Part shown: positions 19,101-63,871 of the stretch, piece by piece
How the letters are laid out: each line of letters begins with the position of its first letter
How positions within the stretch are numbered: position 1 is the first letter of the stretch
DNA from: a virus
Length of the DNA stretch: 64,000 nucleotides
Reading direction: 5' to 3' (one strand)
Virus record (IMG/VR): IMGVR_UViG_3300025168_000054
Location: 15,959 to 79,958 of that record
Program-made: the position numbers and the translations under genes
The notes under the pieces: model-generated
Databases searched by the model: none
What the model was told of the DNA's origin: nothing
What the model saw: only the letters and a program-made list of their open reading frames with translations

Positions 19101-22100
19101 CCCTCAGAGACGCCGCTGTTCAAGCCCGTGTTCGTCAGGACGCCGCTGAGGCCACCACCGGTGCCGCTGAGCCTAAGGCGACTCCTTCTCCCACGGTTGC
19201 TTCGCCAACGACTACGCGGTCTTTGCCCAAGGCAGGAGAAAAGCACACGCCGCCGACGCCAGCAGAGGCTCGCGCAGAGACTGCTGCCGCGCCGAGGAAC
19301 GAACGCGGTGTCTCACTGGGCAACCCGGCACCTTCCAGAGATGACCTACCTAAGATCGAGACGGTCGTTAAGCCCTACCGCGAGATGGGCAAGCAGTCTC
19401 CTGAGACGTTGGCTGAGCACGCGAGTGCTCGTGGAATCGACCTCGCCGATCACTCGACGCCTGAAAGTCTCGCGAACGCTGTGGGTCAGGCAGACGTAAA
19501 GTCTGCGCGCGTGGCGCAGGCTGTGTCGGGTGACGCGCCTCCGGCCGCGGCCAAGGCGGCACCGCCTGAGGCCTTTGCCGCAGCGGCAGACATCACTGCC
19601 GCAGAGGCGAAGACCGTCAATGCGATAGACGCCATGGTCGATGCGCTCGCACCGGAGAACGCAGACAAGGTCGCCAAGCGTGTTGCACGTCTCCAGAAGC
19701 TTATCGACAAGTCGGAAGAGATCGAGGCGCTTTCAGCCAAGCAGGTGGTCGACTACGTCTTTGACGACCTGGATGTTGGCGCGCGAGAGACTCTGGCGAA
19801 CTCCGGGGCAATCGACGACATCGTCAAAGACCTGACGAGGATTTTCAACCAAAACGTCGCGGACGTAAAGCGAGAGTCTCGGCGGCTTCGTCGAACCTTT
19901 GAGAGTCTGCAGAAGCTCGCCAAGAAGCTGGAAGGCAAGGATCGTGAGCGGGCTCTCCGTGCTGCTGCCCGAGCGGAACGGCAAGCAACATCCATGGAGG
20001 AAGCTCTTCGCGAGCTCTTGAGGTCTGACCGGCTGGACGAGTTCGCCGATCTTCTCGAGACTGAGCGAGCAGCCGGCAAGGTTCGGCGGAAGGCAGAAAA
20101 GCAGGCCCGAGAAGAGGCCATCATCTCGTTCATCAGCCGTGGGGCACCTCCCCGCCCTCCAGGTACGCCTAAGACCCCGCGCAATCGCGGAGTAGATAAG
20201 GTCCCTAAGAACGTCAAGGGGATGGTGTATTTCCTCGACGACTCACAGGCGATTATCTACGCGTTCAAGTCGGCAGATGCTGAGACAGGTCTCCACGAGA
20301 TGGCGCACGTTTTGCGGCGCAACTTGCGGGACGCAGACCTCCAGGTTTCTTTGGGCTGGGTCAACTCTCAGCTGGAAGCGCGGGGCATGGAGAAGGTGCG
20401 CCTGGCTTACGGTGTTGACAGCCGGACGGGCAACTTCATTGGTCGAGGTGACTCTGTTCACTACGCCGAAGAGCTTTTTGCTGAAGGCTTTGAGCAGTAC
20501 ATGCGCGAGGGCGTGGCCCCGACGAAGATGCTCGAGAACGTCTTCAAGATCATGAAGGAGCTTCTGCACAACATCTTCGTCTCGGCCAAGCGACAGCCGG
20601 AGAAGATTGAAATCAGTCCTGAGATGTACGCGGTGTTTGACCGCGTCTTCGGGGCAAAGCAGACGTTCACGATGGACGACATGCCCGACGCGATGATGTT
20701 CCTCAACGTGCAGGACGACCTCGGTCGATCTGTCGTGGGCCTGGGTGGCCGGCTTGAGACTGACCTCATCCTTGAAGACACTGTGACAGGTCGTTTCCGC
20801 CAGCTTGAGATGAGCCTCGACGACTATCGCCGTCGCATGGGCAAAAGCGGCGAGGCGGGTATCGTCGGCAAGGTCGCGTCGAAGCTGCCTACTCCTAAGG
20901 CGGCTGTGGGTGGTCTCGGCTTGGGTTCACGAACCAGCCAGTACCTTGACCCTGTCAGTAGCCGCGTGCTGTCTGCCGAAGACCGCATGCTTCTCAACAG
21001 GTTCCGCCGCGGTGAGATCGAAAGGTCTGATCTGCCCAACCGACTTCTGCCTGAGATCGAGAAGGGCTTGCGTGTGACTGGTGAGGCGGCGGTGCTCGTT
21101 GGCTCGCTCACACTGAAGGCTGCGCGCCTTATGTACGGCGACGATGCTTCTCGCGTCATCCGCACGTACAACCCGGCTCAAAGAGTCCACATGAAGGCGG
21201 GAGCGAGGGAGGGTGAGGAGTTCTCTAACGGCGCGTCAGTCTTGATCAACGACATCTCTCGACGCATGGGTGCCTCTGCCGAACGCGCGCTGAACGACAT
21301 CATCAGCTACTTCTCAGGTCAGTCGGCGCAGCTGTTGACTGGGTCGGAGAGAGGTAAGAGACTCAATGCTACGAATGTAGACATCTTCGAGCACGTCTCG
21401 AGAATGTTCCACGACATGCTCTGGAGGATGGACCCAGAAGCGCGGGTTGCCTTGATACAAGCGGCAGAAAATCGTTTGAGCAAGCCGCTGCACGCGACAA
21501 CTCAGGATGACATCCTTCCGCTGTCAGGTTTGTGGAACGGCTACGTCGTCCGCAACCGAGCAACCCCAGAGAAGTCGGCGCTGTCATTTTCCGGGGAAGG
21601 AATCTTGCTGAGCAATGACTACATCGACGTAGTTAAGCCTGGACTTGCGAAGGGTGGCTCTATCGAGATCGATAGTTTTTTGCAGGACACTCTCGGAGAC
21701 CTCTATGTCGCAGTGACCGGGCAGCCCCTCAGTAAAGGTACGAAGGTTCCTCCCACAGCCTTGGATATGGCTGCGCTGCTCGTGCTTCACTCCGGCGGCT
21801 CGATGCTGAAGGCTTCCGATGGAAGCGCGGTTCACCTTGACCAGGTCTTGAAGGCCGCCGGCGTGAGCCGCGGAGAGGCTTTGATCAAGGGCGTTACCGC
21901 CGAAGTCAACGGCTCGACCGTCAAGGTCCCCGGACTCATGACGACGTCAGTCGCCGTTGAGCGTCGCTTGCCAGTGCTCATGTCTCTGGGGCATGCCGGG
22001 TTTGCGTCAGGCATGCTCGACGACGCGGCGAAGTGGGGCTTTGGTCTTACCGGACGAGAGTACCGAGCGTTCATGCGCTACGTCACAGGTCAGCAAGGGG

Positions 22101-24709
22101 CCATGTCTTTGAGCGATATCGAAATGGCGAAGAGCGTCATTAGCCGCTTCGGTATTTCGGCAGAGTTTGTCACCAACTCACGTCGTCATGGGCAGTATTA
22201 CCTCCCCAAGCAGGCTCGAGACGCGCTGCGAGACCAGATGTCGCAGGCAGCACGGCAGTTTGATTACGGCGAGAAGGGTGGGAAGAGCTCCGTCGCAAGA
22301 GACGCCTTCGGCATCTACAACTCGTTGCTGTACTCAACGATGGTGTTTGGGGCAGTTGTAGTCAAGCCGTTCTACCGGCTGGCGTCGTTGATCGACTTGG
22401 GTCTCGGTGCTCTGGGTATGGGGGGCGCTCGCGCAGCCACAGCTGCGGTCACACGAGCAGGCGTAAGTACCTTGCTGGCGTTTGCTTACGAAGGGTTCCC
22501 GCTACTGTCTGCGGAACGCGCCGCAGAAGCTGTGGGGCTTGCCGGAGACGCCGGCCGCGCGGTTGTTCGACGTGTTCGAGGTGACGTAGATTCCGCGAAA
22601 ACTGTGTTGGATTTCAAGCAGCAGATTCGCGATGTAGCAGCCGAGTCTGGAGACAACCTTGCTCGTATGATTACCGAGACTTCAGCCAGCGCGAAGTACC
22701 GCCCGGAAGTGCGCCCCATCATGGAAGCGCGAGCAGACATGATCTTCGTCATCAATGGTCGTCCTTACCGGGCTTCTGACCTTCGGCGCATCTTCGTTCG
22801 GTCTGGCCTGTACAACAACATGTTCAAGTCCATCAAGGCCACGTACATGGCGGAGGGCGGTTCGCTCACTGAAGTCATGGACCGGGTGAAGCGCAGCGTG
22901 AAGGAGAAGTACGGAGATGACGCGGCTAACGTGAAGATGCTCGACAGCTTCCTCGAAGAAACGACAGACACGAAAAATCCGTTCAACATCATGGGCGGTA
23001 TCCGCGGAGCCGGTGACATGGCTCTTCGTCACGGCCTTGAGTCTGCCGACGCGTGGGCAGACCTTGAGCGCACAGGTCTGGCGGTCACATTCATGGAGTT
23101 GGGCCACTCACCGCAGACGGCGGCCCGTATGGTCGTTGAGGCGGTTTACGACTACCGAGGCTCTATGACCTCGGCTGATCGCAGCATGTTCAACAAGGTG
23201 ACGCGACCGTTCTTTGCTTTCACCAAGAACGCGATTCACCATCTCACAAACATGATGAGCTCTCCTCTCGGGCGGTTTTACGCTCGTTCGATGGCGAAGC
23301 TGCCGTTCCTTTCAGCTGACGCTGCGACTGCGGTGCTGTACGAGTTCCTGGTCGGACCTTACGGAATCAACACCTCCGCGATGAACTCAAGCGAGGTCAA
23401 CGCGTACTACGACATGAGAAACTTCCTCGAGTACGGTCTGGGCGAGCAGGTTGACCGAAATACTCTGCAGCAGTACCGAGAGATTCTGCCGGATGAGGCA
23501 AAGGACATTAGCGACCAAGAGTTGATGGACCACGACTTCGGCGGATGGACCATCCGCAACGGGTACAACGGCTACGACAACGTGCCGGAAGACGCTCGAG
23601 TGTCTGTGCGTGCTTTGATCGCCAGCAGGTCGAAGCTGTACGCAAAGGGCCGGTACCTGTACGTTGCGAAGGTTCTACAGGACGAAGAACTTCGGGAGGA
23701 GTTCGTCAAGCTTGGTGGAGCTATGGCGGTTCAAGATGAGCCCAGCCGTCGCGGGCAAGCTTCCTATATGTACAACCGCTATCCGACGATTCAGGTTCCT
23801 TTTCCGGTGCTGAACGCCAGCGCGCAAGAGGCGATGCGGCTTGGCCTCAGTGATTCCGTTTACTGGATGCTGCCGGATAACTTCGTCCACTCAGGCATCG
23901 CCGAAGCCAGCGCCATGATGGCTACAGCGTTGGTTGTTCTCGATGAATCTTTGAATGCAATCCCAGGGGGAAAGCCATTCTTCCCCGACGTCGCGGCAAC
24001 GCGTGCCCAGCGTGCGGCAGCGCCTTTGATAGACATACGCGGGTACGGCAGTCCGATTGCTGCCGACATCATCAAGGGCGGCGCCGCGTTGTTCGGTAAA
24101 GGCAACTTGTTCGTCGAAGTCGACCCGCTCATCGCACGCGTGCTGCAGGGGTCAATGATTCCTGTCGCTAACGCCGACGACATCGACGAAGATGACCTGG
24201 GTATCTTGCTTCAGCTCGCCCAGTCTGACCCGGAGCTTTACAACCAGGCGATCAAAGTCTTCAGCCAGATGATGGGCGGCAGCGTGGGCCGAGAAATACA
24301 GTTCCCTGCCTTTGCAGACGAAGTTCGAGCTGCGCGCATGATTGTCAAGGACGGTAGGCGAGAAGTCGTGTTTGCCAATCGCGGCGGTGTCTTTGACCGT
24401 GAGTTCCTCGAAAAGGGCGCTAAAGACTCAAGCGAGAAAGCCGTCCGAAAGAAGCCGTTTCTGGTTGGTAAGTCCGCGGTGCTGTTTAAGATCACGCCGC
24501 TGGGTCAGCTCAATCAGGCGCTCTTGCAGTACCGTAAGACTCCTCAGGAAGGTCAGCTCGAAGCACAGAAGGAGCTTCGGTCGGAGATTATCCGCTTCAT
24601 CACAGCCCAGGGCCGACAGGTCGGTATGCGTACTTCCGGGGCTGACGAAGAGCGCGTGACAGAAACAATCGAGCGGGCTGCGAACAAGGTCTTCGAAGAG
24701 TACAAGTGA
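10124..24709 (+). CDS. Giant internal virion / large polyvalent protein (muramidase-like and zincin metallopeptidase-like domains)
   Basis: 4861 aa; AVTKAES...GAFGEFQVTG...LAKEYYG; ADAETGLHEMAH...EELFAEGFEQY; C-terminal VYDY...PFFAF motif. Confidence 0.8.
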   Translation: MSYLTSLEKRASFPLRPAEQKEEVKVDEVAAPAAPAFTSTVPGTGIRPISDLLPSEGKTPEYSFGDVPTPKENPFDIAFGSREKVAALYSEIVDTTARKRYEAGQLAEKYNFDDQEEEGFFVGLAKEAGETLMGREILPREPSDEKVVLKRTDVDSYMVESPVSVSGRPSPVTGLSQLVLGASAIDPESRPARELKKQGRTAKKIPNAEDIRVNVTNERLRAAFISQAKDKESGAQSYSAYVQRIADNLAKEGKDATFRDAQLFIAGNVIARLPKPAGQGDPGIVVAQRDAVNLVSQYTDPSFTRGLAQTLPMAPLRLGVAGSEKLGDRIDPSRVFDPYVEEDTEMKRSDPLGARARGPMTASEAERAQFLEQRMFFPVDFEYDEDKSLKTSTTAAQTMNDLIVDGSLILGGAEGNFDDMYGERSVTEVYSSKVISGESDQNRLIALAAKAGIPVDKTYAVTKAESTGNPASFAFNLHLGQHNPKDPSNPRNRTAEQEQRLRQLMASEGLKVNFESRAAQNYYGKNARRALDLAAAINPVAAVQGGAFGEFQVTGKYGDALGYVKETFPEVETDEQAAGVFLNMFKQSPGVVGDDMFVRWFQRNPDAQKAANDGDISGLAKEYYGSLSDPEEVGISAAEKARREKQVETRDGWVGRATNASEAYLGGMIDSARKATRPEAQSAETSTDDPPTSLSQQGLLENESVFTSEESREDISQVEEALQLRAVEVETGVSTVMTMFGDMAQAPTPGSSAFIAAVAPIKDAKENDAQLYTVVKDNRDAPMGTGYRNVANFLFERKVNTTLGERSLSDLSAEETKRLKAEARQEAFAVVTSAQTENLWRTSFYTSFDYLLGEEADSVFAAMAPRIEVMGRTKDGFVFRQEGDVLAAAAALDAPAVLGQSFNIGVIGNYLFPAIEAAYTEYEQGNRGAASLAFAVTGETVAAVAGSFGAYIPYSNDIGVEFLNEVHRAGVQGVAERQNFVEVGLSSGADVFGFAAESLLETEMGRETLDMLIASGSLPIPYELTSPGRRHLAVVDMARATGTAVGMLGGLVAAVGVPDATDFLLIPKVMKTGRRAYRLIKDIDLSVDGLEALTETKTFSRAVGSRSEMFLHGEARRTTLAQLAATLEQTSAKDLQGASSDEIATLLQLVDDILDTSRKQDATDGVFRNDLTASVKIEVDLEAESALRLRAETQTPAGEAARYALDKDLSKDVHATIVELIKEASASKDPRRVELAEALGERLKASQLREAVSLSPGQTDAFLSAAEEVVGPKKVFGFTERIEILRDALLLIDPASDGMAIRKKVFSRRVTEDRLSRVANTDTADLPGFVDPTLSKGLDRYGPVTEEALKKSLSTVRLADAKKGEILQARTKLQGWHDRFKAAVADNSILDPQVRSVLLDEFKAEKLGDSNYRVFSNSDRSRQSSYYRGVIKGIEGVAGDATNAAFGQNILARGLQGVLAAADSRGAAYKRFAVALVDKRKLEALDSSMDAEKFLAGGETALRMRRFRYALQSATKEGVMQIMLSNPVMSRLIPEGIRAQYAVSASARMAKRQEMLRQGKSPLDLTNLLKREALTKLSQRLAVATTSGDQAMAAKLTADIDEVKSPQFFARVSQWMDDSITEVKTAAAEGREPNLPGIELPVGIDPAIVNRMDMDPKPLSATRKFFRESYSPAFGFGAVEEVPAGPLTAELRTRRARLSTSEKLANEVVLDHMLRYMAGVDRTDTRVIAERKVTDFLEKRLTVRSIGSYDFESRRVELRTQLDDLSEQIAQRRFGQSVNDLEPRARVQVRSDAFNVIIPLMTDWEASLILARSSEELKEILANARLIGPRLPGEEAGDVILSTLFQDPEFMARLRKTGGATRRRRKAKPAAKAAPETAETTEAPALPAASAVDTAAATDRPARRTRRAAVTIDKEAAPTGQVYVAKVDELDEGVPDSVLEAESAFGNSALLWSSLSDRMGGLLEQSEVLRGSPTLGSASSTVVGQRAVGSIGRQVLGVMVEGLQGLKAEDSSDFFVKFAEALKSTSRFDEPIRLAVTNNPEVVVTLAEVFSKQARGNLTQADVTAVENLLRKAGVLSSELSAQDLLKVNGEETKAALAADTVARADEFVPSPAATKATLPEEVARSSALEEAVENIAKATGSDEIRRLLTDLKDSDHGRNIEAVLRAIDMIGPERLKNISLVIEPAEGQSAAKRMFDFTNETIRVYDDALESGEFTPEVLSQLWQSLTRYVPDAEVKALKDEWLKERDAFMRANPDRFGRDMTPIGDFVPDEMTLLSFDQWIANAARNVVLAEINPKITNNPVLQAFVDTVSALVEQFKLRGKKVGAMALEFLNKGSQKYQEMVRDGSVDTAIRRATPEQYFGEQLKWQAFLDNPDARKPSVKAVGEMEAIDELIDGAAETTVKTVETFLAERFGKRAILTEEGFSLLKAEAVKDDVSRVLFSGVAARLQELGVSALDAEGKPLSPFQMTELFKEVRRGLVEEAADAAKQEGGENFKKVQRLGELESELAKLRAAGETETPRVIKLSEDINELDADLRATAESAGESTSPFQRMLETKTQSERKVLAQSILDSVVAVIAKIDESPGPMTLDELLEGVEDQSVINEVRHLLGVAGKRGDLLSQVRDDGRLLLARAPGRVVLPEEDLYVQTLRAEAEGRAYEADELADEVDKILGLRPDIARDEARKLASGYLEELRQAAATARRQRLERGAIDASMLDELLLNEASSLAADAARTGLRADLDVQIDEIVAAVPDAGTVPFNTTRKVSDDFDIVSFESNPGVEQAAFALSNASSLRKSPPKSIKKGANESAEAFAARSKQLMATNRSAAITLVIDMFEGLRPYIALPAEIVVKRNKVDKTIYLKDVLPGQDFSKLRVLDTKAFLKKYTELIEEALKEQGLLEEVKSLSSAMQKSEFDDAVARARKQKSVEAEPVVEPAAVEPAAARTATDDRFVLKAREMFDDGKTPRAAESVREAIEKNAGSGAAKAFGDEYKSLRDAAVQARVRQDAAEATTGAAEPKATPSPTVASPTTTRSLPKAGEKHTPPTPAEARAETAAAPRNERGVSLGNPAPSRDDLPKIETVVKPYREMGKQSPETLAEHASARGIDLADHSTPESLANAVGQADVKSARVAQAVSGDAPPAAAKAAPPEAFAAAADITAAEAKTVNAIDAMVDALAPENADKVAKRVARLQKLIDKSEEIEALSAKQVVDYVFDDLDVGARETLANSGAIDDIVKDLTRIFNQNVADVKRESRRLRRTFESLQKLAKKLEGKDRERALRAAARAERQATSMEEALRELLRSDRLDEFADLLETERAAGKVRRKAEKQAREEAIISFISRGAPPRPPGTPKTPRNRGVDKVPKNVKGMVYFLDDSQAIIYAFKSADAETGLHEMAHVLRRNLRDADLQVSLGWVNSQLEARGMEKVRLAYGVDSRTGNFIGRGDSVHYAEELFAEGFEQYMREGVAPTKMLENVFKIMKELLHNIFVSAKRQPEKIEISPEMYAVFDRVFGAKQTFTMDDMPDAMMFLNVQDDLGRSVVGLGGRLETDLILEDTVTGRFRQLEMSLDDYRRRMGKSGEAGIVGKVASKLPTPKAAVGGLGLGSRTSQYLDPVSSRVLSAEDRMLLNRFRRGEIERSDLPNRLLPEIEKGLRVTGEAAVLVGSLTLKAARLMYGDDASRVIRTYNPAQRVHMKAGAREGEEFSNGASVLINDISRRMGASAERALNDIISYFSGQSAQLLTGSERGKRLNATNVDIFEHVSRMFHDMLWRMDPEARVALIQAAENRLSKPLHATTQDDILPLSGLWNGYVVRNRATPEKSALSFSGEGILLSNDYIDVVKPGLAKGGSIEIDSFLQDTLGDLYVAVTGQPLSKGTKVPPTALDMAALLVLHSGGSMLKASDGSAVHLDQVLKAAGVSRGEALIKGVTAEVNGSTVKVPGLMTTSVAVERRLPVLMSLGHAGFASGMLDDAAKWGFGLTGREYRAFMRYVTGQQGAMSLSDIEMAKSVISRFGISAEFVTNSRRHGQYYLPKQARDALRDQMSQAARQFDYGEKGGKSSVARDAFGIYNSLLYSTMVFGAVVVKPFYRLASLIDLGLGALGMGGARAATAAVTRAGVSTLLAFAYEGFPLLSAERAAEAVGLAGDAGRAVVRRVRGDVDSAKTVLDFKQQIRDVAAESGDNLARMITETSASAKYRPEVRPIMEARADMIFVINGRPYRASDLRRIFVRSGLYNNMFKSIKATYMAEGGSLTEVMDRVKRSVKEKYGDDAANVKMLDSFLEETTDTKNPFNIMGGIRGAGDMALRHGLESADAWADLERTGLAVTFMELGHSPQTAARMVVEAVYDYRGSMTSADRSMFNKVTRPFFAFTKNAIHHLTNMMSSPLGRFYARSMAKLPFLSADAATAVLYEFLVGPYGINTSAMNSSEVNAYYDMRNFLEYGLGEQVDRNTLQQYREILPDEAKDISDQELMDHDFGGWTIRNGYNGYDNVPEDARVSVRALIASRSKLYAKGRYLYVAKVLQDEELREEFVKLGGAMAVQDEPSRRGQASYMYNRYPTIQVPFPVLNASAQEAMRLGLSDSVYWMLPDNFVHSGIAEASAMMATALVVLDESLNAIPGGKPFFPDVAATRAQRAAAPLIDIRGYGSPIAADIIKGGAALFGKGNLFVEVDPLIARVLQGSMIPVANADDIDEDDLGILLQLAQSDPELYNQAIKVFSQMMGGSVGREIQFPAFADEVRAARMIVKDGRREVVFANRGGVFDREFLEKGAKDSSEKAVRKKPFLVGKSAVLFKITPLGQLNQALLQYRKTPQEGQLEAQKELRSEIIRFITAQGRQVGMRTSGADEERVTETIERAANKVFEEYK

Positions 24710-27365: not shown

Positions 27366-29435
27366 CTACTGAGGTCCCAGAGGAACCAGGTAGTTTGCGA
27401 CGGTGGTGGCAAGGTCATCCGGCGACGTGCCATCCTCGACTACGAGGACAGGATGCGCAAGACGAAGTACCTGGAGAGTCATCTCAATCCCGTTCTCGGT
27501 GATGAACAACGCCACGTGACGCTTGAGAGAGCGGAACTTTCCGCCGCGAGCACGACCACTGGAAGCGTCGTAGCGCTCGCGCAGAGCTTCCGGCAACTCG
27601 GGCAGCGACGGCGTCACCTGAACGGCTTCCGGTGCCGCCTGTGGGGGGAGTGACGGCGCGACCATACGGGCCTTCGCGGGAGGCGGGGCGCCGCCCAGGT
27701 TGATAACCGTCCAGCCCGCGTGGTCTTCCTTGGCAGGCATGACCGTCGAAGTCAGCATCACCATCTGCGGGACCTCACGAAGAGCTTGCATCATGCTGCC
27801 CAGCGTGGATGGATCCCATCCCCGGTCTTCCGGGGCAAGCACCGACAACGGGGTCGGCAGCATCTCATCCAACACGGCACACATGGCGACGAGCACAGAC
27901 ACGCGCTGCGCTTCCGACAGACCCACCTTCAGGTAGCGGGCATCTTCGTCACCATCGAACAAGCCGTAGTAGAAAACGTCACGTCCGCTGTCCGTCACCA
28001 TGACGCCGAACTCCCACCCATCGGGCAGGTAGCCGCTGACACGCTGACAGAATCCGTCGACCCGGTCTTCAAGCAGCTTCGCGACAGCCTTCTGAGACAA
28101 CCTCTTGAAGTTAGAGAACTTTTCCGCCAAGGCGTAGTTGGTATCGACCAAGTTCTTGGCTGCGGTCAACTGATGCCACTTGGTTGCGGATTCGTTGAGA
28201 GCTTCGAGCTTGGCCTGCGCCTGGGCGAGCGCTGTACGAGTGTCATCGACAGACACCGCACTGCGGCTGTCCATTGTTGCGGGTAGTCCTTCGAGGTCAG
28301 ACTCATGCCGCAGAATCTGGGCGCGAGCACCTGACAGAGCTTCCTTGTCCCGCTGGCGAGACGCCCGGAGCTCTTGCAGCTTCTTGGTCTGAGCGCCCAG
28401 GTCCTTGACCTTGTCGGCGTAGAAGTCGTGGCACGCTCGGAGATGAGCGTTGCCGACCGGCGAGGAGCAGATGGGACAGCCGTCAGCATCCTCATCCAGA
28501 GCCCACGCCAGAGCATGTACAGCCCCTACGCTGCCCTTGTACTCAAGGGTCTCACTCTGTTCAAGGTTGCGGATGTTGGCGTCGGCGACGACAACTTCCG
28601 CCAAGAGACGCTGTTCTTCTGCGCGCAGTTTGCCAAGCAGATCATGCAGCAGCTTCCGCTTGTCAGCCACGCCCGAAGCACCCGCTTCACGAAGGTTCTC
28701 TTCATGCAGTGCTTGGGCCTCTTTCACTGCGTCACGAGCAGCGAGCACGGCCTCGCTTCGAGGCTTCGCGCCTACCTCCGACAAGAGCTTGTCGCGCAGC
28801 GAGGTCTGAGCCTTGGCGTCCGACCGCAGCTTGCGCGCCTGCTTGTCGGCAGCGCTGACTGCTTGCATGAGCTTGTCGACGGGAGCCATGTCATCGCAAC
28901 CGACTGTGAGCTCAGAGAACATGTCGACGTCGGCGCCGAGAGCCGTCAAGACGACACCGTCATCGAGGTCAGAACAGACCCACGTAAGGAATCGTTCCCG
29001 CGCTTTCTTCGCAGACCCGGTCAGGACCTCGCGGACTTCGCGGAGGGGGAAGTGCGGGCTGTGTTCTTTGCTCGTGTGGGGAATGATCCAACGAGGGCGA
29101 ATGTGGATCGGCGTCTTGATCCTTCCTTCGTCCCGCTTAGTCTCCCACTGGCAGTGCTCTCCGTTGCTCAGATTGACCCGAGCGAAGACGACGCTGCCAT
29201 CGTGACCATGTTGGTGTGCCAAGCTCATCAGCAACGCGGGGTCGCTGGTGATCGCACGGCCTGCGACTTCTTCGGCCGCTCCGCTGACAGCGAGGGCGAC
29301 CGCCTGCACGACCGCACTCTTGCCGATACCGTTGGGTCCGACCACGAGGGTCTTCTTGGATAGGTCGTAGCTTCGAGGGTTGCCGTCAGGCGACTTGATA
29401 TTGAACGAAACGCTTGTGATCTCAGGCGTACTCAT
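27366..29435 (-). CDS. Rad50/SbcC-like SMC-family ATPase
   Basis: Walker A GPNGIGKS, long coiled coil with CPIC zinc hook, signature LSEAQR; start at 29435 inferred from ATGA overlap. Confidence 0.75.
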   Translation of the reverse strand: MSTPEITSVSFNIKSPDGNPRSYDLSKKTLVVGPNGIGKSAVVQAVALAVSGAAEEVAGRAITSDPALLMSLAHQHGHDGSVVFARVNLSNGEHCQWETKRDEGRIKTPIHIRPRWIIPHTSKEHSPHFPLREVREVLTGSAKKARERFLTWVCSDLDDGVVLTALGADVDMFSELTVGCDDMAPVDKLMQAVSAADKQARKLRSDAKAQTSLRDKLLSEVGAKPRSEAVLAARDAVKEAQALHEENLREAGASGVADKRKLLHDLLGKLRAEEQRLLAEVVVADANIRNLEQSETLEYKGSVGAVHALAWALDEDADGCPICSSPVGNAHLRACHDFYADKVKDLGAQTKKLQELRASRQRDKEALSGARAQILRHESDLEGLPATMDSRSAVSVDDTRTALAQAQAKLEALNESATKWHQLTAAKNLVDTNYALAEKFSNFKRLSQKAVAKLLEDRVDGFCQRVSGYLPDGWEFGVMVTDSGRDVFYYGLFDGDEDARYLKVGLSEAQRVSVLVAMCAVLDEMLPTPLSVLAPEDRGWDPSTLGSMMQALREVPQMVMLTSTVMPAKEDHAGWTVINLGGAPPPAKARMVAPSLPPQAAPEAVQVTPSLPELPEALRERYDASSGRARGGKFRSLKRHVALFITENGIEMTLQVLRLAHPVLVVEDGTSPDDLATTVANYLVPLGPQ

Positions 29436-29998
29436 ACGGTTGCTCCGGGGTTGGTCATGTTGCAAAGCTGTTCGGATACCACACCAAACGGCCCTTTCTC
29501 GTAGTACCAGTAGAGATGAGGCAAGAGCGCAGCGGGTCGAGACACCATAGTGTAGAAAACGAGGGCGCTGCCCTTGGGCGCGCCTACTGCGCGCTCGCCG
29601 TCGGGCCGGACGAACTTGACCCGAGGCGAGAGGAAGATGACTGCTGCGGTGTTGGGGCAGTTCACTACCCACTTGCTCCAGTATTTTGTGTCGGTATTGG
29701 CATAGACCAGCAGCGCCACGACTTCGCAACCTTCCGTGCAAGCCTTGGCGGCCTTCTCGAACCAGTGAGAGATGCCTCTGCCGTACGGCGGGTTGCACCA
29801 CACGCGCTTGCCGTAGTCGGACCAGCGCACACGGAGTGCGTCGGTCTTGGGGTCGATGAACGGATCGACCCGAGCCGCGTCGAGGTTCGTTGCGCAGGCA
29901 TCGAGGTCGAACATGACGACCTCGTTGACTTGATCGAAGAGCCCGACGGGGGTCATCCAGTCGTCCTTACCCAGCGTGCGGGTAGTCGGAGCGGTCAT
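29432..29998 (-). CDS. Phage DNA N6-adenine methyltransferase (Dam, PF05869-like)
   Basis: DDWMTP, FDLDAC, WCNPPYG and NTDTKYW motifs. Confidence 0.9.
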   Translation of the reverse strand: MTAPTTRTLGKDDWMTPVGLFDQVNEVVMFDLDACATNLDAARVDPFIDPKTDALRVRWSDYGKRVWCNPPYGRGISHWFEKAAKACTEGCEVVALLVYANTDTKYWSKWVVNCPNTAAVIFLSPRVKFVRPDGERAVGAPKGSALVFYTMVSRPAALLPHLYWYYEKGPFGVVSEQLCNMTNPGATV

Positions 29999-30243
29999 GA
30001 TGGCTCCTTGCAACGGTGTGATCCTTCGTGACCCTCGGGCAGCGTGCATGTGTAGAGCTTTTGGCTCTTCCCGATGAAAACGCCCGCGCCGCACGGCAGC
30101 CACGGAAGAGGTCGACCCTCGCCGCCCTCGGCGTAGAACTCTGCGAGCTCTCGCGCTTGGCGCAGAAGCTCGCGCAGTCGTTTGGCTTCGTCTTCGAGGC
30201 GCTTGTAGCGGTGAGCCCAGTATTTTCCGCGTACGTCGATCAC
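29995..30243 (-). CDS. Hypothetical protein with C-terminal Cys/His motif
   Basis: Translationally coupled on both sides; C...CTLPEGHEGSH. Confidence 0.7.
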   Translation of the reverse strand: MIDVRGKYWAHRYKRLEDEAKRLRELLRQARELAEFYAEGGEGRPLPWLPCGAGVFIGKSQKLYTCTLPEGHEGSHRCKEPS

Positions 30244-36524: not shown

Positions 36525-36932
36525 TTATTCGTCAATCTCCCAGTGATGCTGGGTACCGGGCTCATGGCATCGGCGGATATTACGAACGCTGCCCCCCGTC
36601 AGACCCAGCTTTTCGCTCAGGAAATCAACAACTTGTTTGACATTGAACTCCTTGCAGGAGAACAAGTCGAAGCTCACATGTCCTCGCAGAGGCCACGTAT
36701 GAATACTTCCGTGCGACGTGGTCAGGATTACAGTGCCCGTGACTCCTCCGTCGTCCTCGCCGTTCTCGACCATAGGGTCAAGCGGCACGGCGACCATTTC
36801 CGCAGGCTTCAGAATCTGCATACCTACCATCTCGACCAGTTCGTTGAGCACCGCACCGATCAACTCAGGGTCGTTGAGGCGCTGCGACTCTTGGGTCCAG
36901 GCGTCAATGATTACGTGTCTACCTGTTTTCAT
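36525..36932 (-). CDS. speD: Pyruvoyl-dependent AdoMet decarboxylase (SpeD) homologue; substrate uncertain
   Basis: GRHVIID, GGVTGTVILTT-SHGSIHTWP self-cleavage motif, DLFSCK. Confidence 0.88.
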   Translation of the reverse strand: MKTGRHVIIDAWTQESQRLNDPELIGAVLNELVEMVGMQILKPAEMVAVPLDPMVENGEDDGGVTGTVILTTSHGSIHTWPLRGHVSFDLFSCKEFNVKQVVDFLSEKLGLTGGSVRNIRRCHEPGTQHHWEIDE

Positions 36933-36937
36933 GATGA

Positions 36938-37918
36938 TTACTCCGGGCCGTACTGGCATAGTTCAAACGCGCCGCACTTACCGTAGCGGTGGTAGCAAAC
37001 GAGCTCGCTCTGAGCCATTTGCCAGTCCCCCTCGGTCACGTACGCTCTCTTGTGGTTGACGAGCTGGTTGCCCAGCGACATCGCCCTCGAGTAAATCTGC
37101 CGAGCCAACTGTTCGTCACGCCAAGGTGTGGCGGGTACGTGCTGACGACTCACGGTCCAGGGGCTGCGCCGCTGCACCAAGTTCAAGATGACCCCTCCGA
37201 AGTCCTCGTACAACTGCTGGCCCATGATGCGGTTGACGGCGAACTGGCCGTCCATGGCGTACTGCTGAGCACGAGTCTTGCTCACACTCCCGCCGGTCAC
37301 CTTGTGATCCCAGATGTACGTTCGCCCGTCGGAGCTATGCTTCATCACGAGGTCGAACCGCTTGGTCAATTCGATGGGCTTGCCGTGCTGCAGCGCCGGA
37401 ACGCCACGAACAGGCTCCTCAAGCCCAGGGCAATCCAGCAACGTAGGCTCTGAGAGATTCTTGTCGAGCCATAGGCCGAAGTCTCCTTCGTGGTTGTGCC
37501 CCAAGGTCAGCTTGACCTGGTTCTCGACAGACACCACACGGTCAGAGACATAGGGCTCCTTCTGAAGATATCGACGGAAGACATCAAGCGTCGTGCCGAT
37601 GTAGGGGTGAGCGTCTACGCCTTCGAGCTCTCGCCGACGCACCCACTCACGAACTGCCGCATCGGGAGGTAGGAAGTGGTCAGGGTCTGTGACGTGCTGG
37701 CCTTCGTACTCGAAGCCTCCCTGCTCGCAGCCCTTCTGAGCGTAGTAGTGAGCGAGCACGGTGTGGCCCATTGACCCCAGTGTCAGCGCCTCGGCGTTGA
37801 TGAACTCACGCTGCTTGACGTTAATGATGAACCATAATCGGTCACACTTAAAGGCTGGTCCCCAGAAGGACCAGCCTGTTGTGCTTCGACCGGTGTCGAT
37901 GAGGATGGGCTCAGGCAT
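36938..37918 (-). CDS. Cas4/RecB-like PD-(D/E)XK exonuclease with Fe-S cysteines
   Basis: KCDR...GSMGH...RFDLV...IWDHK...Q...C.....KC....LC. Confidence 0.8.
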   Translation of the reverse strand: MPEPILIDTGRSTTGWSFWGPAFKCDRLWFIINVKQREFINAEALTLGSMGHTVLAHYYAQKGCEQGGFEYEGQHVTDPDHFLPPDAAVREWVRRRELEGVDAHPYIGTTLDVFRRYLQKEPYVSDRVVSVENQVKLTLGHNHEGDFGLWLDKNLSEPTLLDCPGLEEPVRGVPALQHGKPIELTKRFDLVMKHSSDGRTYIWDHKVTGGSVSKTRAQQYAMDGQFAVNRIMGQQLYEDFGGVILNLVQRRSPWTVSRQHVPATPWRDEQLARQIYSRAMSLGNQLVNHKRAYVTEGDWQMAQSELVCYHRYGKCGAFELCQYGPE

Positions 37919-58827: not shown

Positions 58828-59463
58828 TCAGATGTCTTCCGGCGGCGTCATGTTGTCGGTCACGTCGTACATGTCGAGGGGAGATTCCGCGAACAGTCGG
58901 CGGCGCCCGTCTTCGTAGTCAAACACGTGGACGTTCGCACCGGTCTCATCGTCGGTGTACTGGAAATGCTCTCTGATCCCCAGGTCCTGCGGCTTGAGCA
59001 TGTGCTCGTTGAACGCCTTGGACACTCTGTCCTTGTAGTCGTCGGGCGTTGCCTTGGGAAAGACAAATGGGTTGATCTTCTCGCGGACCATGCTGTCGCT
59101 GATGAGGTCGCGTTCGATCTCATCCCCGGTTCTCATCGAAGGCGGTGGTTCGCCGGAGACCTGCGATTGTATGAGACGGCCGAGGTTTCTCGATCGCACA
59201 ACTTCAGTACGGTCGATGATTTCATCGTCGGTCAACGGCTTGGGTACAAACCCTCGGGGAGGACCCGATGCGCGGGCTTTCGACGCATTGGGCCCGAGCA
59301 TCTCCAGGTTGTAGCCGTACGGAGTTTCCGTGGTTGTCGCGACCGTGCCGCTATCGTACGTGGTCGTACCCTCCTTGAGTCGGGGGTTCAGACCAACCGT
59401 AAACTCGCTCGCCATCTCATCTTTGAGATTGGCGCACGCGTCACCTGGCGAGTAGTTTTTCAT
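58828..59463 (-). CDS. Hypothetical protein
   Basis: TGATG-coupled to the upstream gene. Confidence 0.7.
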   Translation of the reverse strand: MKNYSPGDACANLKDEMASEFTVGLNPRLKEGTTTYDSGTVATTTETPYGYNLEMLGPNASKARASGPPRGFVPKPLTDDEIIDRTEVVRSRNLGRLIQSQVSGEPPPSMRTGDEIERDLISDSMVREKINPFVFPKATPDDYKDRVSKAFNEHMLKPQDLGIREHFQYTDDETGANVHVFDYEDGRRRLFAESPLDMYDVTDNMTPPEDI

Positions 59464-59834
59464 CAGGTGATGAGGATTCGCGTCTGCAGAGTAGTCGACG
59501 GACCAGTGCTGCCGGAGTTGCCCGCGGCGTTGGATCCGATGTACAGAATCCCGAAGTCGATGGTCAGCCCGAGGGGAATCGTGTACATCCTCGTGCTGTT
59601 TCCTGGCGCGTAGAAGATGTAGTGTGCGGCGTTTGTCCCGCTGGCCTTACCTGAGGTCGCGTCCCAGATACGGAGGTATGCGTCGCCCGACCCTGCGCTG
59701 TTGTCCAGGTAGACGGCGAAGATGGTAGTCCCCCCCGACTTCCCCAAAATTGGTGACGTGCCGCCGACGACGTTGGCGTCGGAGATTTCGTTGCCGGCGA
59801 GATTGCCCGGAAGTACGCGATTAACAAGGCTCAT
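59463..59834 (-). CDS. Small beta-rich virion-like protein (paralogue of 59838-60209)
   Basis: Shared LDNS...Y/F...G..T..D/H....GL pattern. Confidence 0.6.
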   Translation of the reverse strand: MSLVNRVLPGNLAGNEISDANVVGGTSPILGKSGGTTIFAVYLDNSAGSGDAYLRIWDATSGKASGTNAAHYIFYAPGNSTRMYTIPLGLTIDFGILYIGSNAAGNSGSTGPSTTLQTRILIT

Positions 59835-59837
59835 AGT

Positions 59838-60209
59838 TCAGCTCCCCACGAGAAGGGTGGCAGCGGGTTGGCCGGGCCCCACGTTGTTATCGTCGGCTTC
59901 GTCTGCCGTCGCTCGGATGGTCACGGCCGTAGTGAACGACAGGCCATCTGCGATAACGACGGTTGTGCGGGTAGACTGCTCAACCCGAATGACGAGGTCC
60001 GGTAGAGTGCTCCCGGCGGTGGCTGACAACGCATTGTAGAACTTGAAGAAGGTGTTGGCCCCTGTGTTCTGGGAGTTGTCCAGAACCAGCGAGTGGAGCG
60101 AGACCGCACCGTCAAAAAGGTCGGCAGTACCTACGTGGTTTGTGACGGTTTCCTTGGCAATAATGTCAGGGAAATCGGAGGTACCGAGGGGCGTAGTGGT
60201 CAGGGCCAT
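59838..60209 (-). CDS. Small beta-rich virion-like protein
   Basis: Thr/Ala-rich; RBS AGGAG. Confidence 0.6.
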   Translation of the reverse strand: MALTTTPLGTSDFPDIIAKETVTNHVGTADLFDGAVSLHSLVLDNSQNTGANTFFKFYNALSATAGSTLPDLVIRVEQSTRTTVVIADGLSFTTAVTIRATADEADDNNVGPGQPAATLLVGS

Positions 60210-60236
60210 TTAGAGTTCTCCTGCGCGGGCAGCTTA

Positions 60237-60536: not shown

Positions 60537-60583
60537 AACGCACCTCTGCTGAGGGACAATAACACACAAGCGCCGATGGTAAG

Positions 60584-61558
60584 TCAGTCTCCCAGCAGGT
60601 AAGCCCAGATTAGCGGCGCAACAATGGTGGCGTCTGACTCGATCATAAACTTCGGGGTGTCGACATCGAGTTTGCCCCAAGTGATTTTCTCGTTGGGTGG
60701 CGCTCCTGAGTATCCGCCGTAGCTGGTCACAGCGTCACTGATCTGGCAAAAGTATCCCCAGAAGGGCGTCGATGTCTCTTTGAGGTCTTGAATCAATGCG
60801 GGCACAGCGCAGATGGCGAAGTCTCCTGCAATCCCGCCACCAATCTGAAAGAAACCAACGCTCGGAGTACCGTTGAGATCTTTGGTCTGCTGCTGGTACC
60901 ACTCTATCAAGCGAACCATCTGCTCTGTGCCTGAGACCACAGACGTATGACTCTGTAGGTTTCCTTTGAGTGCAGCGACAGCGAACATGTTGCCGCAGGT
61001 GCTGTCCTCCCACCCCGGCGTAAACACAGGGACACCGCAGCGTGACGCAGCGAGCAGCCAGCTGTCTTCAGCCTGTTGGAAGTGACGCTGCACTTCGGGT
61101 AGTGCCAGCACACTCTGAAGATGTTCCGCGGGAAGGGCTGAGCGTCCCTCTTGGTCGAATGCTTGCCAGCGTGCCAGAAGTTTTTCTGCCAAGCGGCGCA
61201 TCACTGTCTCGGGAATGCACGTGTCTGTCACGCGGTTCATGCCCTGCTCGTAAAAAGCACGGTCTTGTTCAGCCGACAGTGCTCTCCAGTTTTCGATCTC
61301 AACGTACGTGTCTCCCTCCAAGAGAGCGTAGGCATCTTCCTCTAAGTTCGCTCCCGTGCAGCAGATTCCATGCACTAAACCAGCGTCGAGCGCGCGCGAT
61401 AAGATTCGACCAATCCGAGCAGTGGACATCGCTCCGGCCAATGTCACAAACATCTTTCCGCCCGCTGTGATGTGGGCTTCGTAGGCTCGTGCAGCTGCTC
61501 GAACTTGTCGAGCGTTGTAGTGTAGATAGTGTTGGTCGACAAAGTCGCGTACTCTCAT
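60584..61558 (-). CDS. Deoxyhypusine synthase-like protein (bacterial type, SpeY/homospermidine-synthesis candidate)
   Basis: TLAGAMST, TGANLEED, NRVTD, PGWEDS, IGGG, YSGAPPNEKITWGK with the catalytic Lys, ESDATI. Confidence 0.92.
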   Translation of the reverse strand: MRVRDFVDQHYLHYNARQVRAAARAYEAHITAGGKMFVTLAGAMSTARIGRILSRALDAGLVHGICCTGANLEEDAYALLEGDTYVEIENWRALSAEQDRAFYEQGMNRVTDTCIPETVMRRLAEKLLARWQAFDQEGRSALPAEHLQSVLALPEVQRHFQQAEDSWLLAASRCGVPVFTPGWEDSTCGNMFAVAALKGNLQSHTSVVSGTEQMVRLIEWYQQQTKDLNGTPSVGFFQIGGGIAGDFAICAVPALIQDLKETSTPFWGYFCQISDAVTSYGGYSGAPPNEKITWGKLDVDTPKFMIESDATIVAPLIWAYLLGD

Positions 61559-61671
61559 TCAATCCTCCTGCCAGGCTCTACACGGGGTCCATACTTCTTA
61601 GGGGCAAAGGCACCCTGCTTGGACTAATCTTCGACGCGTAGATCTTTACTTTAAAGCTGCGAAAGAGAGTA

Positions 61672-62667
61672 ATGCAAGATTTCGATCCGAACAACGCTGC
61701 GTCTACAGAAGGTCTGTTTGGACTGTCAGACGAGCAGCCTGCGCTTGTGCGGGTGCTCCCTGTGCCTATTGACGCAACCGCGAGTTTTATGCGTGGAACG
61801 GCTGACAGTTGGAAGTACATCTTGCGCGCAAGTCATCAGGTTGATCTCTTTCATCCTCACGTTGAGTCTCCGTGGCGAGAAGGCATCGTGTTGGAAGATG
61901 TGCCGTCGAACCTTCGACAGCTAAACACAGAGGCGTGTGCGTTGGTCGCTGCGGCGAGATCCGGCGCAGCTTGCACCGACGAGGTCAACAAGATCGGGGA
62001 GACGGTTGCCGACGAAACTGAAAGGTTTGTCTCTGCAGCCTTTCAACGCAATGAAATACCTGCCATCTTGGGCGGTGACCACTCAGTGCCCTTCGGCGCT
62101 CACAAGGCTGCTGTCGCTCAGTTCGCTGAGCTGGGTGTCCTTCATATCGACGCACATGCAGACCTGAGACCGGCCTATGAAGGCTTCACGCACAGCCATG
62201 CGTCCATCTTTCACAACACCCTGAGTTTGGGAATCTCATCTCTCGCACAGGTCGGGATTCGAGACCTGTGTGAACTCGAAGCCCAGCGACAGCGCAACGA
62301 TCCAAGGATTCATACTCTGACTGATTTTGATATTGCCGACACCAAAGCACGTGGCGCAGACCTTAAAGAGCGTTTCGTAGACCTGGTAAAAACACTGCCT
62401 GAGTCTGTGTGGGTCTCGGTCGATATCGACGGACTTGATCCCTCGCTATGTCCCAATACCGGTACGCCAGTACCCGGTGGACTAAGCTGGCGTGAGTTCC
62501 GTGTTTTGATGCAGGCATTGGGGGAGTCAGACAAAAATATCGTAGGGTTCGATCTTTGCGAGGTTGGGCCTCATCCGTGGGACGCTAATGTCGGCGCACG
62601 GGTCTTGTTCGAACTGTGGTGTTGGAGTGTGAGCTCTTATCGAAGACGCTCGCAAAACCACGCATGA
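61672..62667 (+). CDS. speB: Agmatinase (ureohydrolase family)
   Basis: GGDHS, HIDAHAD, SHAS, GIRD, SVDIDGLDP, TGTPVPGG; Mn ligands intact. Confidence 0.92.
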   Translation: MQDFDPNNAASTEGLFGLSDEQPALVRVLPVPIDATASFMRGTADSWKYILRASHQVDLFHPHVESPWREGIVLEDVPSNLRQLNTEACALVAAARSGAACTDEVNKIGETVADETERFVSAAFQRNEIPAILGGDHSVPFGAHKAAVAQFAELGVLHIDAHADLRPAYEGFTHSHASIFHNTLSLGISSLAQVGIRDLCELEAQRQRNDPRIHTLTDFDIADTKARGADLKERFVDLVKTLPESVWVSVDIDGLDPSLCPNTGTPVPGGLSWREFRVLMQALGESDKNIVGFDLCEVGPHPWDANVGARVLFELWCWSVSSYRRRSQNHA

Positions 62668-62691
62668 ATACTTTATTGCGACTCTGAATGG

Positions 62692-63075
62692 TTACTCAGC
62701 AGCGGTTACCTGCAGTGTATCGACGAGAAGGTCCCTCACGGCGGAACACTCAGGGCGCTGTGCCGTTGACTGGCCGTACTGGAGACAGCTGGCCCACTGG
62801 CACTGCACGCTCATGGGGTCGCCGCCCATTTTCGTCCGGCACTGCACGGGAATCTCTGCCAGAGTGGCTTTGATTTCAGCGTCAATGACAACGGGCTTGC
62901 TGGCTTCGACCAGAATCTCGGTCTGTCCGTCGAGGATGGCGTCGATGCTCTGTGCTTGCGCCTCAAGGGCCTTTGCAGCGCCGTCAGGCTTAAGGCCCCA
63001 CCCAGCGCCGAAGCCTGCGCCGACGCTGACGACAACCGCAATGACGGTCAGAGTAACGGGGTCCATCTTAGTCAT
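62692..63075 (-). CDS. Membrane-anchored lysis-cassette protein (spanin-like?)
   Basis: N-terminal TM helix and four Cys; follows the holin-like gene. Confidence 0.45.
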   Translation of the reverse strand: MTKMDPVTLTVIAVVVSVGAGFGAGWGLKPDGAAKALEAQAQSIDAILDGQTEILVEASKPVVIDAEIKATLAEIPVQCRTKMGGDPMSVQCQWASCLQYGQSTAQRPECSAVRDLLVDTLQVTAAE

Positions 63076-63870: not shown

Positions 63871-63871
63871 T

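Follow-up and report, generated by a model that had tools for sequence, protein, structure and literature searches.

In bacteria and archaea, homologues of the S-adenosylmethionine (SAM) decarboxylase SpeD (AdoMetDC) that occur without the spermidine synthase SpeE are either L-arginine decarboxylases (ADCs; the SpeDA type, usually clustered with speY and with speB or aguA/B) or L-ornithine decarboxylases (ODCs; the SpeDC type), and the SpeDA-SpeB-SpeY trio has been shown biochemically in Candidatus Marinimicrobia and others (Li, Liang, Phillips and Michael, JBC 2023, PMC10407285). Phage SpeD homologues can also be ADCs or ODCs: the pelagiphage HTVC201P protein has ADC activity, ODCs make up most of the neofunctionalised phage homologues that have been characterised, and a dual ornithine/arginine enzyme is also known among them (PNAS 2023, PMC9992855). 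SpeY joins two agmatines to give N1,N9-bis(guanidino)homospermidine and does not use putrescine, and the agmatinase homologues associated with it hydrolyse bis(guanidino)homospermidine, not agmatine (Li et al., JBC 2026, PMC13625781). A 2023 survey of the virosphere detected SpeY homologues in no phage or virus, and a phage homologue of agmatinase just once (PMC9992855), the 2026 SpeY paper makes no mention of phages (PMC13625781), and a search of the literature joining phage, deoxyhypusine synthase (DHS) or SpeY, and agmatinase returned nothing beyond PMC9992855, PMC10407285 and PMC13625781. Here we describe a SpeD homologue encoded at positions 36525-36932 of a 64-kb stretch of viral DNA (hereafter the window, to which all coordinates refer), which comprises bases 15959-79958 of the complete 79,958-bp virus record IMGVR_UViG_3300025168_000054, a genome with direct terminal repeats (DTR). 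An initial inspection without database searches, here called the sequence-only reading, had stated that some phage and prokaryotic AdoMetDC homologues act as arginine or ornithine decarboxylases, which is indeed already published biology (PMC9992855, PMC10407285).

We propose, at a probability of roughly 0.55, that this SpeD homologue is a pyruvoyl arginine decarboxylase of the SpeDA type that supplies agmatine to a SpeY-like protein and a ureohydrolase encoded by the same phage. It has in common with SpeDA (PMC10407285, PMC9992855) the class-1b fold, the Ser/His/Cys triad, the lack of a partner spermidine synthase, occurrence in phages, and the presence in the same genome of speY and a speB-like ureohydrolase, a trio known from Ca. 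Marinimicrobia, Capsulimonas, Woesearchaeota and others. It differs from SpeDA in belonging to a clade of its own with Thr at position -1 relative to the pyruvoyl-forming Ser, Pro-Leu in place of Pro-Glu and an acidic loop of ~13 residues, whereas Glu is retained at -1 in the SpeY-linked lineages that we labelled by genomic context, and the pelagiphage sequence type is ET-SH...HSWDE. In addition, the protein keeps a conserved Pro that many SpeDA proteins are stated to have lost, and the three phage genes are not clustered, the decarboxylase gene lying 24 kb from the other two. The bacterial pathway that runs from an ADC through SpeY to a diagmatine ureohydrolase (PMC13625781) is matched by one phage candidate gene for each step, with SpeY and ureohydrolase adjacent as in the bacterial clusters; unlike that agmatine-dependent homospermidine pathway, the present one is virus-encoded, and its SpeY-like and ureohydrolase proteins are divergent (127 vs 450 bits and 137 vs 174 bits against the family cut-offs).

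The SpeD homologue and the T-SH/WPL clade

The gene occupies 36525..36932 on the minus strand and encodes 135 amino acids plus a stop. A longer 144-aa open reading frame (ORF) was set aside as the gene model, and the 135-aa coordinates are preferred because in an alignment of homologues the relatives begin at the same Met, at 36932; a Shine-Dalgarno sequence read from the DNA, GGAG (36941..36944, minus strand), stands before this ATG with a spacer of 8 nt. Scans for promoters and terminators gave nothing exceeding shuffled controls. The translation includes TGTVILTT-SHGSIHTWPLRGHVSFDLFSC and VPLDPMVENGEDDGG, and the ILTT-SH self-cleavage motif to which the sequence-only reading had drawn attention is present in it as described. 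The protein matches Pfam AdoMet_dc (PF02675; E 3e-23, 82.6 bits against a cut-off of 25) and phrog_3125 (73.5 bits), and scores 70.1 bits against the NCBIfam AdoMetDC equivalog TIGR03330, under the cut-off of 75.65. An AlphaFold2 model built on an alignment of 38 clade members (pLDDT 94.3) has the alpha-beta sandwich of the Thermotoga maritima AdoMetDC, and Foldseek aligns it with 1TMI_A at a TM-score of 0.74/0.85 and a root-mean-square deviation of 1.6 Å, with 1VR7, 1TLU and 2III as further matches. In a sequence alignment with T. maritima 1TLU, S73 corresponds to S63, H78 to H68, C93 to C83, T72 to E62 and L82 to E72. The processing and catalytic Ser, His (+5) and Cys (+20), which are reported to be essential for processing and catalysis in class-1b enzymes (PMC10407285), are all present as S73, H78 and C93. 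As judged from sequence and predicted structure, the product is a proenzyme of the prokaryotic class-1b AdoMetDC fold, and the conserved triad together with the fold suggests that it cleaves itself between Thr72 and Ser73.

All of these features lie on the minus strand. The codons of Thr72-Ser73, the predicted autocatalytic cleavage site, are at 36714..36719, with Ser73 as the presumptive pyruvoyl precursor and Thr72 in place of the canonical Glu. The codons of His78-Thr-Trp-Pro-Leu82 (36687..36701) include the putative processing and catalytic His78, the Pro of the HTWP motif that is conserved in bona fide AdoMetDC (P81 here), and Leu82 in place of a ribose-binding Glu (T. maritima E72). Cys93 (codon at 36654..36656), equivalent to the T. 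maritima catalytic C83, is invariant in alignments of the clade. The acidic insertion covers residues 50-62, PLDPMVENGEDDG (36747..36785), follows the clade pattern ...D.......(E/D)D(D/E)GG, and in the AlphaFold2 model is a loop joining strands 40-49 and 63-70. Bona fide class-1b AdoMetDCs (T. maritima TM0655, PDB 1TLU/1TMI/1VR7; Bacillus subtilis SpeD; cyanophage SpeD) are thus alike in fold (TM 0.74-0.85), proenzyme architecture, triad register and HTWP, and unlike in that here E62 is replaced by T and E72 by L, an acidic insertion is present, there is no linkage to speE and the equivalog score falls below the cut-off.

The unusual residues are shared by a large group of relatives. Our material consisted of 41 near relatives and of an exhaustive search of representatives (1862 hits at E<=1e-3), in which (S/T)T-SH..IHTWPL is frequent among the nearest clusters. 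T72, S73, H74, H78, W80, P81, L82, S92 and C93 do not vary even in alignments that include relatives of no more than 30% identity. In the clade (n=43) position -1 is Thr, +8 Pro and +9 Leu in 43/43 members, and the median spacing from G.H to the Ser is 71; in enzymes whose genes adjoin speE (n=9) position -1 is Glu, +8 Pro and +9 Glu in 9/9, and the median spacing is 58. Because T-1, P+8 and L+9 are invariant in all 43, the motif is no chance oddity of a single gene, and because of the spacing of 71 against 58 the acidic loop, which the sequence-only reading had also pointed out, is a true insertion of ~13 residues, in which D60, G62 and G63 are invariant or nearly so across the clade.

In a maximum-likelihood tree of 126 rows, the T-SH/WPL proteins form one clade of 53 rows (SH-aLRT 98), although this tree comes from a quick search on 125 columns, many of its deep forks are unresolved and the published characterised sequences are not among its rows. 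Apart from the clade stand the genes that adjoin speE; an ODC-type group, VQ.I(E/T)T-S...Y.D, which includes phiN3; a mixed E-SH group with genes adjoining speY and/or ureohydrolase; and the homologue of pelagiphage HTVC103P. The Ca. Electrothrix aarhusensis MCF locus L080, together with L067, L070, L076, L082 and L085, encodes proteins reading 'VE-SGISIHTLT...' that group with E-SH sequences and not with the ODC-type clade; Electrothrix RWX43081, to which L080 may correspond, has been reported as an ODC.

The sequence-only reading had taken the TT-SH site, in place of the usual (A/S)E-SH, as one mark of a likely neofunctionalised protein. The site is conserved throughout the clade but is not unique to it, since a Thr-Ser cleavage site is also found in the ODC-type clade and in pelagiphage homologues (ET-SH...HSWDE). 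The Thr-Ser site on its own was rejected as a sign of neofunctionalisation, the ODC-type and pelagiphage proteins sharing it and the SpeY-linked ADC-like genes keeping Glu-Ser. The Glu to Leu change at the ribose-binding position is more telling. Eukaryotic AdoMetDC is built of two class-1b-like halves, and we take positions -1 and +9 to be those of human Glu67 and Glu247, through the shared E-S and H-x-x-P-E registers, with T. maritima E72 equivalent to E247. In human AdoMetDC, Glu67 contacts the adenine of SAM through its backbone and Glu247 the ribose O2'/O3' through its carboxylate (PMC3686867). The enzymes linked to speE have Glu at both positions in 9/9 and the phage protein has Thr72 and Leu82; if the human and class-1b positions are indeed equivalent, both SAM-contacting Glu positions have been replaced throughout the clade, and its members have probably lost SAM binding.

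The SpeY-like and ureohydrolase genes and the phage genome

The complete genome encodes one AdoMet_dc, one DHS-family (Pfam DS) and one arginase-fold gene. The DS gene (60584..61558, minus strand; 324 aa; PF01916, 134 bits) is a candidate agmatine-coupling N1,N9-bis(guanidino)homospermidine synthase. Its catalytic-Lys motif GAPPNEKITWGK (WGK) aligns to 7CMC, and its best NCBIfam match is 'homospermidine biosynthesis protein', although the equivalogs NF001980 and NF002699 are not reached (126.9 vs 450 and 79.4 vs 500). A DS fold with the catalytic Lys is thus found next to a gene for a guanidino-hydrolysing enzyme, an arginase-fold ureohydrolase (61672..62667, plus strand; 331 aa; PF00491, 163 bits) that is a candidate bis-guanidino-homospermidine (diagmatine) ureohydrolase. 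This protein keeps the Mn-ligand motifs GGDHS, DAHADLR, SVDIDGLDP and GFDLCE, and scores 136.8 bits against the agmatinase model TIGR01230, under the cut-off of 174.3. From their motifs both proteins look catalytically competent. The two genes are divergent, with 113 bp between them. The sequence-only reading had envisaged an agmatinase/DHS-like cassette; both genes do exist (60584-62667), but they are ~24 kb from the decarboxylase gene and therefore do not form one cassette with it, and the pair is an indel with respect to a sister phage.

This sister, IMGVR_UViG_3300006735_000002, is a complete DTR-bounded genome of 81,570 bp whose decarboxylase is 90% identical, and no DS or Arginase domain was found in its 81,570 bp. 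A DNA comparison shows that the flanks of the two-gene cassette (60567..62708, 2.1 kb), 59288-60566 and 62709-63958, are 86% and 84% identical to sequence of the sister, in which they are ~60 nt apart; in the junction alignment this ~60-nt spacer carries a small hairpin. The SpeY-ureohydrolase pair thus represents a gain or loss of 2.1 kb, while the decarboxylase is a stable part of the phage lineage.

The phage is of a marine type and has a GC content of 60%. Its decarboxylase gene sits in a replication and recombination module with genes for a primase-helicase, an SbcC-like protein, a Dam methylase, DNA polymerase A, a Sak4-like annealing protein, a helicase and a primase, and this location fits the need for polyamines in DNA synthesis and packaging. 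No match to PF01564 (Spermine_synth) was found at E<=1 across the complete DTR-bounded genome of 79,958 bp. The absence of an aminopropyltransferase gene that the sequence-only reading had noted for the window thus extends to the whole genome, and the speE gene elsewhere that it had named as a refutation was searched for and not found. As evidence of neofunctionalisation, for which that reading had used it, the absence is true but weak on its own, because S-PM2 and phiN3, phages with a proven bona fide AdoMetDC, likewise have no speE (PMC9992855); the lack of speE in the phage was therefore rejected as strong evidence.

Homospermidine routes encoded by viruses are already known from chlorovirus PBCV-1 and Ralstonia phage phiRSL1. 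These use a non-homologous homospermidine synthase acting on putrescine, and PBCV-1 has a pyridoxal phosphate-dependent ADC with agmatine iminohydrolase and N-carbamoylputrescine amidohydrolase (PMC9992855), whereas the present phage would use a candidate SpeY and a guanidino intermediate. SpeY-like genes are not confined to it. Among IMG/VR contigs (loci L252-L270 and L271-L279), 19 encode a DS protein 46-52% identical to that of this phage, a divergent and mostly viral lineage, and on nine of the 19 SpeY-like contigs there is an AdoMet_dc homologue as well, in many cases within 1-2 kb. Those SpeD homologues belong to a separate low-GC lineage, AE-SH..HSFE(E/D), without the Pro conserved in AdoMetDC. 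In two of the viral contigs (G108 and G109) the DS gene lies directly beside a ureohydrolase gene, with no decarboxylase. Compared with the 19 SpeY-encoding contigs, only the present phage has all three genes together. That phage SpeY repeatedly travels with a non-canonical SpeD homologue or a ureohydrolase fits agmatine-based chemistry, and SpeY modules in phages seem to recur and to have gone unreported. We also observed, in a Ca. Woesearchaeota metagenome-assembled genome (MAG), a single frame of 442-448 aa (L021:2176-3504; G009:C56) in which a SpeD homologue of the E-SH type appears to be joined to a complete DS/SpeY domain (DS 368 bits) and which may be a natural SpeDA-SpeY fusion.

Carriers and genomic partners of the clade

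The clade is mostly viral. IMG/VR holds 288 relatives, many of them on records of jumbo-phage size, a metagenome scan gave 487 relatives and a profile search more than 2000 proteins, and the atlas clusters nearest to the SpeD homologue are 74-81% viral. None of it was found in GenBank phages: megablast of the region found no match, tblastn gave identities of at most 34%, and a central clade member had no match there at E<1e-6. Cellular carriers are rare. A species-level genome scan found two planctomycete MAGs, a T-SH copy is present in 2/301 sampled Planctomycetota genomes, and no speY adjoins the T-SH copy in the short flanks of those carriers; the speDA-speY arrangement of G. maris did not reappear there. 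The scan of genome contigs used the C-terminal pattern FSCK(E/D)F and returned mainly canonical and other lineages, which served as controls labelled by context.

Partners were surveyed by tblastn with SpeY, ureohydrolase and SpeE probes on ~120 distinct T-SH loci. A full-length speY lies immediately downstream of the clade member at L112, ureohydrolase genes lie 0.3-3 kb from the T-SH gene at L113, L121 and L129, and a SpeY fragment lies alongside it at L124. No speE was found by tblastn beside the T-SH genes at any of the ~120 distinct loci, whereas canonical control genes adjoin speE in 7 loci, and in 12 planctomycete loci. In a Pfam tally of 101 nearest neighbours, DS is the sole family seen twice, Arginase occurs once and Spermine_synth never; the other neighbours of T-SH genes are mainly ORFans. 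At L124 (4092-4891), a contig with 35% GC, the T-SH/WPL homologue has as its neighbour an ORF of 120 aa with 63% identity to one portion of the SpeY-like protein of this phage, a high value despite GC contents of 35% and 60%; the ORF might be a truncated copy or a domain fragment. On planctomycete-type contigs (L013, L014, L113 and L121) we observed a conserved synteny of a class II fumarase gene, a low-molecular-weight (LMW) phosphatase-like gene and the T-SH speD, with a ureohydrolase gene downstream in some. The fumarase, LMW phosphatase and GNAT neighbours of planctomycete T-SH copies are uninformative on function.

Gene inventories point in the same direction as the partners. Two of the genomes, G003 and G412, each encode two strong agmatinase-family genes and no agmatine deiminase, and each has a single LysA-sized decarboxylase of the alanine racemase (AR) fold with none that is SpeA-sized, of the aspartate aminotransferase (AAT) fold or of the PvlArgDC type. 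The T-SH protein is thus the only visible source of agmatine in these two genomes. A third, G004, does encode an AAT-fold enzyme, so that the argument holds for 2/3 genomes. An anomalous SpeD homologue together with agmatine-using genes and without a speE of its own is thus found in the phage genome, at L112, L113, L121 and L129, and in G003 and G412.

In some genomes a clade member coexists with a canonical SpeD. In the planctomycete MAG G003 a canonical speD immediately precedes speE and the T-SH copy is unlinked, and two SpeD homologues with one SpeE is a published search criterion for neofunctionalised copies (PMC10407285). The viral records G061:C1 (497 kb) and G064:C1 (372 kb) carry a T-SH copy, speE and a separate canonical copy reading AE-SH..HTYPE..FTCG. 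Canonical speD, a T-SH/WPL homologue and a 440-aa SpeE-like ORF were observed together on G061:C1, G064:C1, L310-L313 and L248. This jumbo-phage set has the look of an almost complete spermidine module of phages, in which two distinct decarboxylases share the SpeD fold.

Proposed function and alternative explanations

We suggest the following route. The proenzyme would cleave itself between Thr72 and Ser73, Ser73 would become the pyruvoyl cofactor, and His78 and Cys93 would take part in processing and catalysis. Having replaced both SAM-contacting glutamates, the clade would no longer work with a spermidine synthase, and its likeliest substrate would be L-arginine, which would be decarboxylated to agmatine. 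By analogy with the bacterial pathway, the SpeY-like enzyme of the phage would condense agmatine pairwise to N1,N9-bis(guanidino)homospermidine, from which the neighbouring ureohydrolase would then form homospermidine by hydrolysis. The net result would be a self-contained route of three enzymes from arginine to a triamine during infection. In sister phages without the cassette, the decarboxylase would feed agmatine-using enzymes of the host. The sequence-only reading had suggested that the decarboxylase feeds the agmatinase/DHS-like genes. This is still the best-supported reading, with the amendment that bis-guanidino-homospermidine, the product of SpeY, would be the substrate of the ureohydrolase, and agmatine would not (PMC13625781). 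All of the recurrent partners handle agmatine or guanidino compounds, and together with the inventories of G003 and G412 and the cassette of this phage they tip the balance modestly towards an ADC.

Several observations weigh against an arginine decarboxylase. The SpeY-linked SpeDA-like genes that we labelled by context keep Glu at -1, often with Pro-Glu, so that the Thr and Leu changes are not what makes an ADC, and phiN3, whose AdoMetDC is bona fide, likewise has no exact Pro-Glu. None of the 10 NCBI-sourced clade members (including MBX3189041.1, MCC7534917.1 and MFQ5654384.1) is a characterised accession, and no characterised SpeDA could be placed in the clade. G003, G412 and G004 are all MAGs, and genes that seem to be absent from them may be missing only from the assemblies. 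The decarboxylase is retained by the sister phage, which has no cassette; this argues for a role independent of the cassette, and the co-occurrence of the two in this phage could be opportunistic. Finally, 50 other viral records with a clade member, most viral records being fragments, have no DS gene and no arginase-fold gene; speE is present in two of the 50.

The foremost alternative is a pyruvoyl L-ornithine decarboxylase resembling SpeDC, or a dual ornithine/arginine enzyme, with putrescine as its direct product and an incidental link to the cassette. Three of the points that tell against an ADC speak for it. Thr before the pyruvoyl Ser is one of the four ODC-diagnostic positions; the orphan state of clade members in 50/50 other viral records is more easily explained by an ODC, which needs no partner; and the jumbo phages with a canonical speD, a T-SH copy and speE but no agmatinase resemble bacterial speD/speDC/speE clusters. 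The majority of characterised neofunctionalised phage homologues are moreover ODCs, with one dual enzyme (PMC9992855), and the phage protein is like SpeDC in its Thr-Ser cleavage site, in being small and phage-borne and in its loss of AdoMetDC-type residues. However, of the four SpeDC-diagnostic residues (Gln, Thr, Phe and Tyr), as read from Fig. S5 and ODC-type sequences rather than from a WebLogo, Thr alone is present, with Val instead of Gln at -5, Thr instead of Phe after the His and Ser instead of Tyr at +14. SH...IHTWP is kept after the cleavage site, and the clade stands apart from the ODC-type clade in the tree. Guanidino chemistry is what the speY and ureohydrolase genes in its vicinity (L112, L113, L121, L129) and in this phage suggest, given that SpeY does not use putrescine (PMC13625781), and speY is found in no published speDC cluster (PMC10407285). 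We regard an ODC as unlikely on these grounds, with roughly one chance in five left to it, and the choice between ADC and ODC is a real uncertainty.

Rather less likely still is that the clade acts on another substrate new to the fold, such as lysine or a modified or nucleotide-linked amino acid, or that it is a non-catalytic or regulatory paralogue. The conserved acidic insertion has no described role and most neighbours are ORFans, both of which would suit such a function, but the Ser/His/Cys triad is invariant, so that catalysis is very likely retained. In addition, no AdoMetDC homologue tested so far takes lysine (PMC10407285), and DS/SpeY is the sole recurrent Pfam neighbour.

That the protein is simply a divergent AdoMetDC, boosting host spermidine through the SpeE of the host as the SpeD proteins of cyanophages and phiN3 do, we consider improbable. 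The matches to AdoMet_dc and to phage 'SAM decarboxylase' families and the retention of P81, which is conserved in bona fide enzymes, are consistent with it, as are phiN3, a bona fide enzyme with an unusual motif, and the phages with a proven AdoMetDC and no speE (PMC9992855). Against this, the score lies under the equivalog cut-off, both SAM-contacting Glu positions are replaced clade-wide, the clade is separate in the tree and never adjoins speE as canonical genes do, and genomes with speE and a clade member also hold a separate canonical speD. The residue losses, the separate clade, the lack of speE linkage and the canonical copies alongside make a plain AdoMetDC very unlikely, in line with the earlier suggestion of neofunctionalisation. 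More unlikely still, and very remote, is the other proposal of the sequence-only reading, depletion of SAM to blunt SAM-dependent restriction or BREX-type defences. Phages are known to have SAM-degrading enzymes, for example the T3 SAM lyase, which is of an unrelated fold, and the protein does resemble a SAM-consuming family, but depletion requires SAM binding, against which the replacements at T72 and L82 argue; the gene is part of the replication module, away from the small early ORFs that look anti-defence-like; the phage itself depends on SAM because it encodes its own Dam-type N6-adenine DNA methyltransferase (29432-30031, minus strand; PF05869, 78.9 bits; phrog_111); and the published pyruvoyl homologues are slow, with kcat of 0.01-0.9 per s (PMC10407285, PMC9992855).

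Returning to the arginine decarboxylase, we tentatively put forward a wider scenario, which we hold to be somewhat less probable than the enzymatic assignment itself. The T-SH/WPL clade would be a further, independent and largely virus-borne emergence of an ADC from AdoMetDC, in which both SAM-binding Glu residues were lost and the gained acidic loop could bind the guanidinium group; any such role for the loop is conjectural. This phage would then have captured the 2.1-kb cassette and become the first virus known to encode all that is needed to convert arginine to homospermidine, with agmatine and bis(guanidino)homospermidine as intermediates, and modules of the SpeY type would turn up repeatedly among uncultivated phages. 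Neofunctionalised phage SpeD has already been published (2023), and what appears to be new is the T-SH/WPL clade and the three-gene phage pathway, which could be the first complete phage-encoded route from arginine to homospermidine.

Phages require polyamines for the synthesis and packaging of their DNA and for translation. If our interpretation is correct, phages can carry a whole agmatine-dependent homospermidine pathway, and hundreds of metagenomic annotations as 'S-adenosylmethionine decarboxylase' are wrong (288 relatives in IMG/VR, more than 2000 proteins in the profile search). The clade would also offer structure-function studies a new sequence solution by which a pyruvoyl enzyme exchanges SAM for a basic amino acid as substrate, namely Glu to Thr, Glu to Leu and an acidic loop. 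The sister phages with and without the cassette would be a natural pair, offering a clean test of the effect of virus-made homospermidine on infection. Elsewhere in the window, the structural half of the genome has a single ORF of 4861 aa (10124-24709, plus strand), the size of a giant virion-associated protein.

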